Shown here in pieces: positions 7,201 through 58,196 of a DNA stretch of 64,000 nucleotides (its first letter is position 1; each line of letters opens with the position of its first letter). Location of the stretch: the IMG/VR virus record IMGVR_UViG_3300023491_000002; one strand, 5' to 3'. Source of the stretch: a virus. The notes under the pieces were generated by a model. It worked only from the letters and a program-made list of their open reading frames with translations. It had not been told where the DNA came from and searched no databases. Position numbers and translations under genes: made by a program.

Positions 7201-10200
7201 ATCTTAAATGGATTGTTACTCGTATTGCTGCTAAATACTCTATATTCGATAATATATTCTTTGGTCGTAGATTCAATTGGATTGACGCTGTTACTAAAAC
7301 AGAAGTTGAATATGCACCTAGCATAAATAATGGTGATCTTAGTGCTGAACTTAATAGTTATTTGTGGCATCTTAGTCGTTATACTGCTCAAGTTCTTGAA
7401 CAAAGTGGTAGACCTCTGCCTAGTTTCTTAGCTGATGTTCACTTCGGTTTAAGTGAGACTACAAAGAGTGATATTAATGCTCTTACTAACAAAATTATGC
7501 AGGAAGCTAAGAGTATGCAAATTAAATTTGATATTATCAATAATACTATAGAAGATAATTTAGGTCGTAAGAATTCTAAATATGCTTTATATGTATCTAT
7601 TGGTGGTGTTGAATATAGAGTGCTTAATACTCCGAATCCTCGTAAAGATGTTGGTATTGTTATTGAAGGTTTTGAGAATCAACTTAATCGTTATGTGCTT
7701 ACTCCCGCTAATATGGCAACTCCTAACGATGATTATATTCTCATTGCTAGACAAACACAAAGCTCCGCTCCTGACCAGTCCTTGCCTCCTACCGGGGGCT
7801 ACAAAGCTCAACAGAGTTCCACTGATGAAACTATTACTCCTAAAACTGAGATTACAGAGACTGTTTCTAGTGCTAATGGTATTACTACTGAATTTGTAAG
7901 TGATGAAAGTTCTACTAATACCGATGATGCGCCAATCGAGTTTGTAACGGCTTCAAATCAGCCCCTTATAGACTTCAAAATAGAGGGTATTGATACTAAA
8001 TCCATGCTTGAATTTTTAATGTCTCTAATGAGCCAAGAAGGGGTAAATTTGGCACTATTTGACACGGATTTGATAAACGCTTTAGTGCTGATTCCAAAGC
8101 TACTTAGAAACACTAAAGTTGGTAGTAAGTATGCTTCTGATGCTTATATTAAAGCCCTAATGAATAAGTACTTTACAGACGCTAAACTTACTGGTGTTGA
8201 AACTAAGATTATTGAAACTGCTAAGAAAGTCGCAGCTGCTGTTAGTATTAACATTGACGAAGGTGGAAATTCAATTCGACTAAATACTGCTGAAAATTGT
8301 CGTAATGCTATCAATGCTCTTGATAATCTTAAGAGTTTATATAAAGATGAATCTAAATGGTTATCAGATATGCAATCTCTTACAGATGCTCTGAATACTG
8401 TTTATGAATCTGATCTTGTTGCTAAGTTTGCACAAGTTCTTACTCAATCTAAAGATTATAATTCTAATGCTATTGCCATACGTCTTGATGAAACGCTTCA
8501 TAACAAATTTGCTATGATTGCTCAAGACTTAGGTGGTATCTTTGTTGATAATCTTAATCTCTTTGGTACACTTGTTGCTTTTATTAGTGATAGAAGTGGT
8601 TTTAGAATTAATAAGATTAACTATTATGATCTTGTTAATGGTATGCGTGAATATCGTGGTGATAACTACAAAGAACTCATACCCGAAATCATGTCTATTA
8701 TGAATATTACTAATTATCTTCATAATGAATTTAAGAATAGACGTGATTACTATAGTGCTAGATTTGCAGTAACTAAAGATGCTACTTATAAAGAGCTTTA
8801 TAATAATTATAGTTTCTTTTATGATCTTATAGATGTTGCTCCTACTAATGGTTTACCTTTAACAGAAGCTCAAGTTCTTGATTTTATTAATCGTACACCT
8901 GAGATTAAAGGTAAAACATATCATGAAGGTCTAGATATTAACTTTAGTCCTAACGGTGCTCCTGAGAATATTCTAGGTAATAGTACTGCTACTAACTTAG
9001 GTATTTATGAGTTACTTGATGGTATTAAAGAAGGTGATGAGGTTACTGTAGTTCAAACTGATTTAGAAGAAAATCCTAATAGAGCTTCTTATGATGTTGT
9101 AATGAATCGTAATGGTAAAGAGTATAAATTAGGTTCTATTCCTAAACTCGAAACTATTACAAATGGTATAGCGTATACAATTCAAGGTGCGAATGGTGTG
9201 TATTATCCACGTAAATTTGCATTTACTGATGATATGGCTAAAACCTTTGCTGAATATCAAAGAGAGCTATTTAGATTCATGTATCATTACGATATTGCTT
9301 TTAATCCTCGTAATAATATATCTGCTAAAGACAGAGAGAACTCTGAACGTAACATTGATATTATCTTTGATCAGTTTAGAAAAGATCGCTTTAAGAAGCT
9401 AATGGATACACTTAAAGAACTTGTGTATTCTAATCTTACATATAAGCAGATTAAAGATATTATGAATAGCCAGACAATGATCGGGGTTGTTGATTCTGAA
9501 TATACAGGTGATACTGACGGTGAAATTTCTATTGATAATGTAGCTCTTTCATTTAATCAAATATATCAAATTTGTACTGATTTATTTCCTGCTTCTAGGA
9601 TTAATCATTCAAATATGGATAGTATTATGAATGCTACGGCTATTACGAAACATTTCAATGACGCTGTTAATCGTCATGAAATGATCTTCCGTAATAATCA
9701 AGCTATTCGTAATGATATTCGCTTTACAGGTTCTAATACTTTTAGAATAAGTCATATTAGTGCTGGTAGAATACTAATTAATGATGAAGCTCGCAACGAA
9801 GATCATGAGGCTAAACATGGATTACCTATTATGCATCATCGTAATTCTTTATTAGATTCTATTAAGCCTACTAAAGATGTTCTTGATTCTAAAGGTAAAC
9901 CTAGAGTTCAAATACTAGCTATTGATGAGAATGGTGTTGGTAAAGATCCTAAAACTGGTGGTATTGTTCAGAATATAGATAAGTTTGCAACACCTCATGT
10001 AGCTGATACTTTTATTGGTAATAGACGTCATGAAGTTGTTGTTATACCTCAAACTGATTCACTTAATACTGTATTCCCTATATATCCTAATACTATTATG
10101 GGTTCTATCACCGATGAAACAGAAGAAGCTCGTATTAGTAAATTAGGTAAATATACAAAATATATTGGTGATGCTATTAAAGAAATTCTTGCTCTTAATA

Positions 10201-58149: not shown

Positions 58150-58196
58150 ATGTTCCGCGCGTCACCAGTCCTTCTTCCCTACTGGGGTCTGCTGAT
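58150..58196 (-). repeat. Interspersed GC-rich mini-element, copy H (in the large non-coding region, converging with copy G)
   Basis: Reverse complement reads CAGCAGACCCCAGTAGGGAAGAAGGACTGGTGACGCGCGGAACATCC. Confidence 0.8.

Follow-up and report, generated by a model that had tools for sequence, protein, structure and literature searches.

The 64,000-nt window that we analysed, which is the whole stretch of AT-rich DNA considered here, from a crAss-like gut phage, contains a family of GC-rich elements ~55-60 bp in length whose copies hold the same sites and orientations in related phages and change in sequence together within each genome. Retention in distant relatives and joint change within each genome make the copies look like working signals and not like jumping DNA. 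Our tentative reading, which comes from sequence comparison, is that the elements may be DNA recognition sites for a co-evolving phage factor, marking the boundaries of transcription units in the manner of promoters or operators and acting in addition as recombination junctions.

A first-pass annotation had proposed at least 11 copies, which we letter A to K in order of position, and the family proved to be real. All 11 were found where they had been reported; the search profile, built from the 11 reported copies, recovered the same 11 (E 1.6e-16 to 7e-13) and, at E<=10, nothing else in the window, that is, no weaker members. The concern that the copies might turn out to be unrelated on proper alignment was not borne out, as they can be aligned without gaps over ~62 nt, and a 12th copy lies just outside the window, inside a portal-like gene. 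Allowing at most one mismatch, CCCCAGTAGGG is matched 8 times (0.02 expected), and GGAGCGGARC is matched 7 times (0.73 expected). The element core has a GC content of 51-70%, compared with 31.7% for the window. The ends of the element form a direct repeat of GRRGC-TTTGCA, five of its six reading frames lack stop codons, and its invariant positions are scattered (C17-19, T22 A23 G24, G32, G37 and G45). Across the host genomes and deposited phage genomes that we scanned, the element is restricted to this crAss-like lineage. Rfam returned no family at gathering or permissive thresholds, deposited phage genomes contained no match, and the element was not found in the crAss-phage literature searched, which agrees, as far as tested, with the earlier impression of a motif not previously described in phages.

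Copies A (7757..7811, minus strand; nhmmer E 9e-15) and B (11791..11849, plus strand; nhmmer E 7e-14) both lie inside a 2877-aa ORF (4236..12869). The pyrimidine-rich strand of A is in the mRNA and is translated as SSAPDQSLPPTGG, and an orthologue of A is present in mid-clade loci and in L206 (69% aa identity). For B, both ends of which are F-like, the purine-rich strand is in the mRNA and is translated as NSLTPDREGAVEGSGT; B had been described as antisense to local minus-strand genes, but it sits in a plus-strand gene. The remaining copies were placed by the profile search. C (26239..26297, minus) and D (26482..26535, plus) form an inverted pair at a convergent junction. C is ~40 nt downstream of a terminator hairpin located after a 4416-aa ORF (26164..26201, 11-bp stem, z -3.6; sequence read directly), and the T run of this hairpin on its minus-strand side makes it able to act on both strands; D is immediately preceded by a 14-bp hairpin (26531-26564), which in turn comes after the stop codon of a minus-strand gene (26570..26914). 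Copy E (35840..35898, plus) occupies the spacer between an intrinsic terminator with a 12-pair stem and a T run (35926..35953, minus) and the ATG (~35822) of the next minus-strand gene. Copy F (43445..43500, minus) is inside a family-4 UDG-like gene (43585..42995, minus) and forms an inverted pair with copy G (43849..43907, plus), which is 18 nt upstream of the ATG of a small gene (43830..43588, minus). Copy H (49354..49409, plus) overlaps the stop codon of one minus-strand gene (49400..49810) and is 35 nt upstream of the ATG of another (48974..49318). Copy I (52943..52998, minus), in which the purine-rich strand is the mRNA sense, overlaps the TAG stop codon of a minus-strand gene (52995..53246), and the next ATG is 23 nt downstream. 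Finally, J (57964..58023, plus) and K (58142..58201, minus), an inverted pair 118 bp apart, stand to the left and right of the divergent junction between a minus-strand replication block and a plus-strand structural block, and face outward, in line with the two gene blocks. There are thus three adjacent inverted pairs (C/D, F/G and J/K), not the two first counted.

Copies C, D and E share a layout in which a stop codon is followed by a terminator hairpin and then by the element, whose pyrimidine strand is the one in mRNA sense. No stem-loop precedes copies G, H and I, where the element is abutted by the stop codon, and none precedes the coding copies either. The arrangement at site E (stop codon, terminator, element, ATG) was found in 5 lineages, down to 41% helicase identity, with an element-to-ATG gap of 27-34 nt in four of the five and 60 nt in L204. 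The element is not itself the phage's terminator, because it contains no T run and terminators of the usual type occur elsewhere, none of which, in our scan, is an element. The earlier statement that orientation is inconsistent is roughly right: if the pyrimidine-rich strand is taken as sense, 8 of 11 copies follow local transcription, an agreement that is not significant. Even under this most favourable assignment, the local genes are opposed by B, F and I, and by one L205 copy.

The three copies inside coding sequences (A, B and F) leave the frame of their long ORFs intact, as had been reported, in differing frames and orientations. A protein motif is rejected because copies are read in three frames and both orientations, and translational bypass of the byp or T4 gene 60 type is rejected because the reading frame continues across A, B and F and the UDG peptide across F is conserved. 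The open frames across H and I are not evidence of bypass, stop-codon readthrough or split genes; they follow trivially from the five stop-free frames.

Conservation of position and orientation is extensive. The 187 copies identified at 86 loci on ~45 related contigs are all at the same sites in the same orientation. No locus spanning a site was element-free (7 to 23 loci per site at ten sites, no locus spanning both flanks of B), a count drawn from a sample biased towards element carriers. The IMG/VR protein search for loci used an element-encoded peptide as its pattern and was not an unbiased sample either. This comparison of orthologous positions, suggested earlier as a check for mobility, gave no sign of it. 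Sites I, H, G, F and E are present in the same orientation in a relative with ~60% UDG identity, and sites E and F are retained in lineages at 41-43% helicase identity; at very deep divergence, additional positions appear (X in the L205 DNA polymerase tail, and L205 5580). Each lineage has its own consensus, common to the copies of one genome, for example TGCCGATAGGGAGTAAGGTTGGTCGCCCAC in four L205 copies. In close relatives the element is no better conserved than its flanks, and the 3' box changes flavour at orthologous sites. The copies also exchange sequence patches by gene conversion: B resembles F in the window clade, where the two have AACTCTCTAA and GGAAGGGAGCGGAAC in common, and resembles G in the mid clade, where the two have CTTAGAA in common. 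A copy is no closer in sequence to its neighbour in an inverted pair than to copies farther away (C is nearest to H, and so is F). No inverted arrangement, inversion or deletion between copies was seen in the ~45 contigs, and invertible segments between inverted pairs were rejected because no relative has an inverted arrangement. The fixed positions and the joint change of sequence within each genome predict a matching trans-acting factor.

Copy F clearly exemplifies a coding sequence constrained by a nucleotide-level signal. The gene that contains it matches Pfam UDG (1.1e-8), the copy was found in every lineage examined, and it encodes RNSLIPSRGQGLEGSGT, a motif that is invariant in homologues and is the native R..V.G.G strand, with a distance to the next motif 3 aa longer than in the canonical family-4 UDG. 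An in-frame net insertion is therefore rejected for this copy. The rare codons AAC, CCC, AGG and GGA (usage 13%, 6%, 3.6% and 14%) are nevertheless fixed in six lineages, and the retention of rare codons within a native protein motif indicates selection on the nucleotides. Copy F as a whole shows no raised synonymous conservation (codon identity 0.68 inside and 0.74 outside); the rare-codon core alone is informative. None of the few homologues found for the giant protein, which contains A and B, was free of the element.

Several alternatives concern what the element might do as RNA or in replication. The CCCC-AGTA-GGG(G) hairpin proposed earlier is not a conserved structure, as 18 of 34 diverse copies cannot form its fourth pair and 6 of 34 cannot form its second, and compensating changes are absent. 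The suggested folding check likewise revealed no conserved fold: most MFE z scores, whichever the strand, lay between -1.4 and +0.8, and the copies had no structure in common; only three copies reached z -1.8 to -2.8, on the reverse strand, RNAalifold predicted 0 pairs, and there was no covariation. Taken together with the Rfam result, these data reject a structured RNA (ribozyme, riboswitch, sRNA or RNase III site), and the combination of scattered invariant positions, no pairing and folding z scores near 0 fits direct readout of the sequence. A signal at the level of RNA, with the C/U-rich strand serving as a Rho-loading or RNA-binding-protein site, or with opposite copies pairing into long duplexes that are cut or block translation, is distinctly improbable. 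The presence of the pyrimidine-rich strand in mRNA for most copies, the placement of copies just after stop codons, the folding of inverted pairs as long hairpins (z -4.9 for the C/D region) and the fact that E and F of one genome stay alike, and hence complementary as RNA, across lineages are consistent with such a signal; the missing fold and covariation, the mixed orientation and the lack of any special likeness between adjacent pairs argue against it, E is downstream of a strong terminator and thus not on the transcript of F, and a Rho-loading site would need no such fixed sequence. We regard a replication signal (an origin, terminus, priming sites or G-rich structures handled by the phage's PIF1-like helicase) as very unlikely. 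The divergent J/K and convergent C/D pairs do coincide with the cumulative GC skew minimum and maximum, but GC skew tracks gene strand and is not independent evidence. A PIF1-family helicase is encoded, invariant positions are mostly G-tract bases, and a loose two-tetrad G-quadruplex pattern fits 10 of 11 window copies and 35 of 50 diverse copies; against this, the other 15 of the 50 do not have four G tracts, the L205 lineage has three tracts only, the remaining copies are scattered in mixed orientation, and no iterons or AT-rich unwinding element were defined.

Other alternatives treat the copies as repeats that move, or that promote the movement of other DNA. The first-pass annotation had likened the element both to REP/MITE-like repeats and to arrayed binding sites. 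Arrayed recognition sites fit the data at the level of sequence, given the conserved positions and orientations, the shared lineage-specific consensus and the rare codons fixed in a coding copy; the comparison with REP/MITE-like repeats does not hold. The REP/BIME elements of enterobacteria and the Rickettsia palindromic elements are, as here, short, GC-rich, interspersed repeats in both orientations; REPs lie after stop codons, often in inverted pairs, and Rickettsia elements lie in frame inside genes. Both are imperfect palindromes that form hairpins, REPs are host-chromosomal and accompanied by RAYT transposase, and Rickettsia elements add residues, whereas no palindrome hairpin, RAYT-type transposase, host copies or added residues were found here. 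A search of 185,579 species genomes gave single chance matches and two mis-binned 94-kb phage contigs, rejecting a host REP element, and the Rickettsia type is rejected because the UDG copy adds no insertion and changes the spacing by +3 aa only. A MITE with target-site duplication is rejected as well: within a copy, the 5' and 3' flanks share 7.36 matches, compared with 7.15 for flanks taken from different copies (permutation p=0.35), so that the TTTGCAA/TTTGCA brackets noted earlier belong to the family consensus and are not copy-specific duplications. The alignment contains no terminal inverted repeats, and no transposase-like match was found among the ORFs scanned. A DGR template or variable repeat (variation is not limited to adenines) and integron attC (no core sites, no fold) were also rejected, as were SRP RNA (GGTCAGG..CGGAA), the ops/JUMPStart GGTAG motif and the T3 promoter, for which the likeness is superficial and Rfam gives no support. 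Selfish or neutral interspersed repeats, having spread in the distant past, being hard to delete and being kept alike by gene conversion (possibly GC-biased) with no service to the phage, are an unlikely explanation. They would account for copies in both orientations, in spacers and ORFs and in three reading frames, for the stop-free frames, for patch exchange and the switch of 3' box flavour, for copies elsewhere in distant lineages, for conservation in close relatives that does not exceed that of the flanks, and for a copy H with an 8-bp internal deletion in L014. They would not be expected to lack target-site duplications, a palindrome, a transposase partner and empty sites in every relative, to keep spacer copy E to 41% helicase identity in a compact genome, to occupy a native UDG motif with no net insertion, or to be placed in such order with respect to terminators and start codons.

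Six of the sites have insertions or replacements immediately beside them. At A, B, D, G, H, I and J, the edge of the element is where indels, cassettes or divergent patches begin, the clear cases being A, B, D, G and I. Relatives have a 360-bp in-frame insertion 24 bp from A and a replaced right flank at B (930 versus 168 bp), the 5' side of D carries a hypervariable 77-bp patch and its edge a 643-bp insertion in L069, and several indels end 0-16 bp from I. At the 3' edge of G is a 236-bp optional cassette (43908..44147, minus strand, containing a 68-aa ORF), which the window shares with a few relatives and most relatives lack; a divergent patch lies on the 5' side of G, and another, of ~270 bp, begins at the edge of H in several relatives. 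In many loci, flank identity falls from 98% on one side of an element to 86% on the other, and in L088 the DNA polymerase region is replaced, with an extra weak copy at the junction. Overall, among 69 indels or replacements, 16 have an end no more than 40 bp from an element, compared with ~3.5 expected, an excess that is partly inflated because alignments to distant relatives stop at conserved islands and spacers tolerate indels anyway. The window also encodes a RecT-like single-strand annealing protein (37760..38767, minus; PHROG 10056, E 3.3e-6), a candidate agent of recombination between copies. Dedicated recombination sites, as nuclease or recombinase targets or RecT-like annealing sites that would promote module exchange between co-infecting phages, a role proposed for repeats of T4-type phages (PMC2839356, PMC4122927), could produce these patterns, and we consider them rather improbable as the main explanation: many indels occur elsewhere, at homing-endonuclease and intein insertions, we could link no nuclease or recombinase to the element, the ~45 contigs show neither inversions nor deletions between copies, and recombination is possibly a by-product of any conserved repeat.

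We therefore return to recognition sites for a co-evolving factor as our preferred, if tentative, reading. The elements would be cis-acting signals on the phage DNA, read by a lineage-specific trans-acting factor, most probably a transcription-machinery protein encoded by the phage, which changes along with its sites. They would mark transcription units: the divergent start of the two large gene blocks has a copy to its left and another to its right, each terminator at the convergent end is followed by a copy, and further copies occupy short spacers, 17-35 nt ahead of start codons. A few are placed where a long gene offers no spacer, and there the coding sequence would have adapted around the element. 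The most likely role would be promoter- or operator-type control with the pyrimidine-rich strand as sense. As no other islands are conserved between diverged genomes or between loci, the elements would also serve as crossover points for homologous recombination, a role that would account for gene conversion between copies, edge indels and cassette swaps. Several observations fit this reading poorly. Orientation is not uniform, the agreement of 8 of 11 copies being not significant, and C and D as promoters would fire head-on. Neither inspection by eye nor scanning revealed a consistent known promoter consensus in or beside the element (Bacteroidetes TTTG/TAnnTTTG or sigma-70), no binding protein or polymerase emerged as a candidate, ten ORFs, nine of them in the replication block, have no Pfam match, and a T7-like polymerase was not found in this phage. 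Elements of close relatives are no better conserved than their flanks, within-genome similarity is explicable by gene conversion alone, and the edge-indel excess is inflated in part.

Promoters of phage polymerases suggest a more specific version of the preferred reading. Promoters of T7-group single-subunit RNA polymerases are long conserved sequences repeated 3-17 times whose lineage consensus follows the polymerase, and N4 virion polymerase promoters have a short G+C hairpin on the template strand; unlike the elements here, all of these point with the genes, and the cognate polymerase is known. By analogy with N4, the elements might be promoters or priming sites recognised in opened, single-stranded form by a crAss-type virion RNA polymerase, with the G-rich strand as template and the CCCC/GGGG hairpin or a G-tract fold as the recognised shape; we consider this a long shot. 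Such recognition would account for a consensus that co-evolves, for a pair that faces outward at the divergent junction and for positions just behind terminators, and would give that polymerase family its first defined promoter. In a study of one crAss-like virion polymerase, the only one studied, early transcripts had no motif in common upstream (10.1101/2020.03.07.982082).

The element can be followed by sequence alone: it is 55-60 bp long, has fixed positions, one of them in a conserved replication gene, and its copies change together. crAss-like phages are among the most abundant human gut viruses; to our knowledge they are not known to be lysogenic, and we know of almost nothing on their regulatory DNA. 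As a promoter or operator, the element would define the transcription units of a whole phage lineage; as chiefly a recombination junction, it would explain the swapping of polymerase and accessory modules in these phages. Other AT-rich genomes also carry GC-rich mini-elements in genes, namely byp elements and yeast mitochondrial GC clusters (27-55 nt). The byp elements interrupt the frame and are skipped by the ribosome, whereas here no coding copy breaks the frame, and the one in UDG encodes a motif that the protein needs.

The closest analogues appear to be the promoter-early stem-loops (PeSLs) of T4-type phages and the stoperators of mycobacteriophages. PeSLs, like the elements here, are ~50-60 bp long and repeated many times per phage genome, are intergenic composites in which a terminator stem-loop is followed by a conserved sequence, and border indels and swapped genes, being thought to be points of homologous exchange (PMC2839356, PMC4122927). 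They differ in having a recognisable host sigma-70 early promoter, in being AT-rich, in pointing with transcription and in clustering in hyperplastic regions (PMC2839356, PMC4122927). The elements here have no known promoter consensus, are GC-rich and of mixed orientation, include copies in essential ORFs, and have a stem-loop before C, D and E only. Stoperators of Cluster A mycobacteriophages likewise consist of many copies of an asymmetric site spread genome-wide, mostly in short spacers, with a lineage-dependent consensus that, in their case, changes with the cognate protein; unlike the ~55-bp elements here, they are 13 bp long, belong to temperate phages, have an identified repressor and show a strong orientation bias (PMC9283540, PMC6550527). 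A 58-bp class of intergenic repeats in halovirus HF2 has been shown to carry promoters and, unlike the elements here, is AT-rich, archaeal and strictly intergenic (PMC8707807).

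The GC-rich repeat, whose 11 copies in the window we call A to K from left to right, is by far the dominant repeat family of this stretch. All 11 copies listed in the first-pass annotation align without gaps over ~62 nt, and a profile built from them recovered exactly those 11 from the window (E 1.6e-16 to 7e-13), with no further, weaker copies up to E=10. The two boxes named in that annotation are likewise far commoner in the window than chance predicts (CCCCAGTAGGG, 8 occurrences vs 0.02 expected; GGAGCGGARC, 7 vs 0.73). The element core is 51-70% G+C, the window 31.7%, and GRRGC-TTTGCA recurs at both ends of the element as a direct repeat internal to the consensus. 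Across 34 diverse copies, positions C17-19, T22 A23 G24, G32, G37 and G45 are invariant and the stretches between them vary, a scatter that would be expected of direct sequence readout. In a close relative (locus L014, 57-104), copy H carries an internal 8-bp deletion, CCCCAGT--------AGGACTGG; this copy has either been knocked out naturally or been misassembled.

A pattern scan of IMG/VR returned 86 loci from ~45 related contigs, a sample chosen by the element itself, in which 185 of 187 copies occupy the same 11 sites as in the window and the other two define a 12th site immediately beyond the window, within a portal-like gene of 795 aa. Among these element-selected loci we found no empty orthologous site; each site-spanning locus bears the element. 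Because of this selection, further relatives were gathered via their proteins. In a phage with ~60% UDG identity, the sites equivalent to I, H, G, F and E are all occupied, with orientations unchanged; another, with 69% helicase identity, retains F, G and probably H; and two lineages at only 41-43% helicase identity still carry a copy in the UDG gene and another at the E spacer. Five lineages share the layout at E (35840-35898, plus strand): a stop codon, a T-run terminator hairpin, 15-40 nt, the element, oriented so that the mRNA carries its pyrimidine strand, a spacer and the ATG of a conserved gene, with 27-34 nt between element and ATG in four lineages and 60 nt in L204. Retention of a spacer element to 41-43% helicase identity in a compact genome argues for function.

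E, G (43849-43907, plus), H (49354-49409, plus) and I (52943-52998, minus) occupy short spacers, 0-74 nt past a stop codon and 17-35 nt ahead of the next ATG. J (57964-58023, plus) and K (58142-58201, minus) sit at the divergent junction of the two gene blocks, separated by 118 bp. C (26239-26297, minus) and D (26482-26535, plus), separated by 184 bp, occupy the convergent junction, each preceded by a terminator hairpin. Copies A (7757-7811, minus), B (11791-11849, plus) and F (43445-43500, minus) and the 12th copy are inside ORFs; an additional copy in a lineage-specific C-terminal extension of the polymerase of a related phage, L205, suggests that a reading frame can extend through the element, which is free of stops. 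With the pyrimidine-rich strand taken as sense, A, C, D, E, G, H, J and K run along local transcription and B, F and I against it, an agreement (8/11) that is not significant. Our preferred reading is that the elements are working DNA recognition sites for a phage-specific factor: factor-bound elements would mark transcription units, and recombination at them would be a consequence. A promoter- or operator-type role is suggested by the stop-terminator-element-ATG layout and by J and K facing outward where the gene blocks diverge. We hold the reading only tentatively, because orientation is mixed, C and D face each other at the convergent junction and no known promoter consensus is present.

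Several other readings were ruled out. A protein motif was rejected, since A is read as SSAPDQSLPPTGG on one strand and B and F as NSL(T/I)P..(E/G)..EGSGT on the other, other copies being open in a third frame. A host repeat was dismissed: across 185,579 species, each represented by one genome, a pattern scan yielded no more than single matches at chance level, apart from two AT-rich contigs of 94 kb, plainly this phage mis-binned into MAGs. The TTTGCAA-type flanks of one copy resemble each other no more than flanks of different copies do (p=0.35), and are thus an internal direct repeat rather than a target duplication, which excludes a transposon-derived mini-element; with no target duplication, and no scanned host genome holding the element beyond chance, the REP/MITE-like reading first offered does not hold. 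Nor is the element the phage's own terminator, as ordinary stem-loop and T-run terminators occur elsewhere.

Sequence change is concerted among the copies, every lineage having a consensus of its own that its copies share: CCCCAGTAGGG...GGAGCGGAAC in the window clade, mostly ...GGAGCGACAC in the 60%-identity clade, TGCCGATAGGGAGTAAGGTTGGTCGCCCAC in four copies of L205, and CCCCCGGTAGGGAGCGGGAAGCGGG in L204. Copies at different sites also share sequence patches; B of the window carries the flank (AACTCTCTAA) and box (GGAAGGGAGCGGAAC) of F, and B of the mid clade instead has CTTAGAA in common with mid-clade G. This sharing shows gene conversion between copies, and also fits co-evolution of the copies with one shared reader. 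That the element is a selfish repeat, held uniform by such conversion, seems unlikely, given the retention at E described above. A dedicated recombination site is somewhat less likely again. Variable DNA does adjoin many copies: a 236-bp cassette with a 68-aa ORF at G, a 360-bp in-frame insertion 24 bp from A (mid clade and L206), a replaced flank at B (930 vs 168 bp), a hypervariable 77-bp patch at D with a 643-bp insertion in one relative, a divergent patch of ~270 bp bordering H, and the end point of several indels at I. Of 69 events, 16 have an end no more than 40 bp from an element (~3.5 expected), and large jumps in flank identity are commoner across elements than at control positions (36% vs 16%), both figures being inflated by related samples, spacer location and alignments that end at conserved islands; we therefore take the association with element edges as real but modest.

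An RNA-level signal is more doubtful still. Structured RNA was ruled out, as on neither strand do single copies fold better than shuffles, and their folds differ. RNAalifold predicted zero pairs over 34 diverse copies, an Rfam search with the element returned nothing even at permissive thresholds, and the proposed CCCC/GGGG hairpin is broken in many copies without compensating change. Least probable of all is a signal for replication or a G-quadruplex; 10 of the 11 window copies fit a loose G4 pattern, but only 35 of 50 diverse ones do.

Copy F lies within a family-4 UDG-like gene (42995-43585, minus strand) beside the DNA polymerase, where it encodes the strand corresponding to the R..V.G.G motif, the best conserved stretch of the protein. 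The distance to the next motif exceeds that of the canonical enzyme by only 3 residues, and this near-canonical spacing of a native motif indicates that no net insertion took place at F. In its core, the codons AAC, CCC, AGG and GGA are seldom used by the genome (13%, 6%, 3.6% and 14% of their families) yet identical in six lineages; synonymous identity is not raised over the whole of F, so the nucleotide-level signal is confined to the core. The protein keeps a Cys-x2-C-x-L-C cluster and has AAPSPAD where family-4 enzymes have the catalytic GE(A/G)PG, and for this reason may be a non-catalytic DNA-binding partner of the polymerase.

In the single crAss-like phage whose transcription has been studied, early transcripts of the virion polymerase have no common motif and middle promoters are sigma-type and sense-oriented (10.1101/2020.03.07.982082), so nothing equivalent to the element has been described in the crAss literature searched; deposited phage genomes gave no match either, in keeping with the initial remark that this is not a described phage motif. 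Closest in behaviour are the PeSLs of T4-type phages, repeats that combine a terminator with a promoter and lie at the borders of indels (PMC2839356, PMC4122927), and mycobacteriophage stoperators, genome-wide arrays with a lineage-specific consensus (PMC9283540, PMC6550527). The element belongs to neither, as it has no recognisable promoter or known binding protein and differs in size, composition, mixed orientation and coding copies.

The window is part of a crAss-like phage of ~95 kb. Its sole named relative is the Crassvirales phage cr127_1, matched weakly in the polymerase gene, and relatives carry a Crass_capsid domain. Plus-strand genes run from 1 to 26.1 kb, a minus-strand replication block from 57.6 to 26.5 kb (Gam-like protein, thymidylate synthase, ligase, RecT-like protein, DNA polymerase, UDG-like protein and PIF1-type helicase), and plus-strand genes resume at ~58 kb. 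Two adjacent giant ORFs, 4236-12869 (2877 aa) and 12888-26138 (4416 aa), are almost without family matches; from position and size, one is expected to be the crAss-type virion RNA polymerase. Contigs L103 (CAJUAL010000008.1) and L129 (JAAUYS010000080.1), each ~94 kb and 29% GC, are filed under a Vampirovibrio and a Clostridia MAG; they are complete or near-complete genomes of this lineage and binning errors that could mislead host assignment.

Other features of the sequence were also recorded. Positions 53865-54687 (~820 bp) lack an ORF of at least 100 aa, vary in length among relatives and contain direct repeats, namely a 63-nt unit present two times (54435, 54542) and a family of 32 nt (53967, 54206, 54528); the stretch may serve as an origin or regulatory region, or may encode a non-coding RNA. 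Another stretch, 58400-59270 (~870 bp), lies to the plus-strand side of the divergent junction; it is non-coding, includes a long G/A-rich tract (58443-58564) with two G-tract clusters (58455-58529 and 58539-58564), and gave only chance-level matches in a permissive Rfam search. The 57100-57600 region has a ~37-nt direct repeat family (57172, 57267, 57456) and many small indels between close relatives, and its ORFs, with TTG starts and a low-complexity appearance, are of doubtful coding status. A separate G+C-rich hairpin, GACGGGGGCATTCCCCCAAG (56989-57030; from L207 4463), in or beside ORF 56519..57073, is not a family member. Relatives carry insertions of ~0.3-1.9 kb at points 41775, 42990, 45351, 46179 and 46504, all absent from the window genome. 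Among them are a GIY-YIG gene within the polymerase (L089) and, separating UDG from polymerase, a NUMOD/HNH-type gene (L203); one helicase (P0036, 841 aa) contains an intein that has a LAGLIDADG/Hom_end domain. Outside the window, L207 (12238-15639) and L208 (12865-16275) have a 1133-1136 aa gene, probably the large terminase, that bears an intein (Hom_end_hint, Hom_end, LAGLIDADG_3) and lies upstream of the portal-like and capsid genes.
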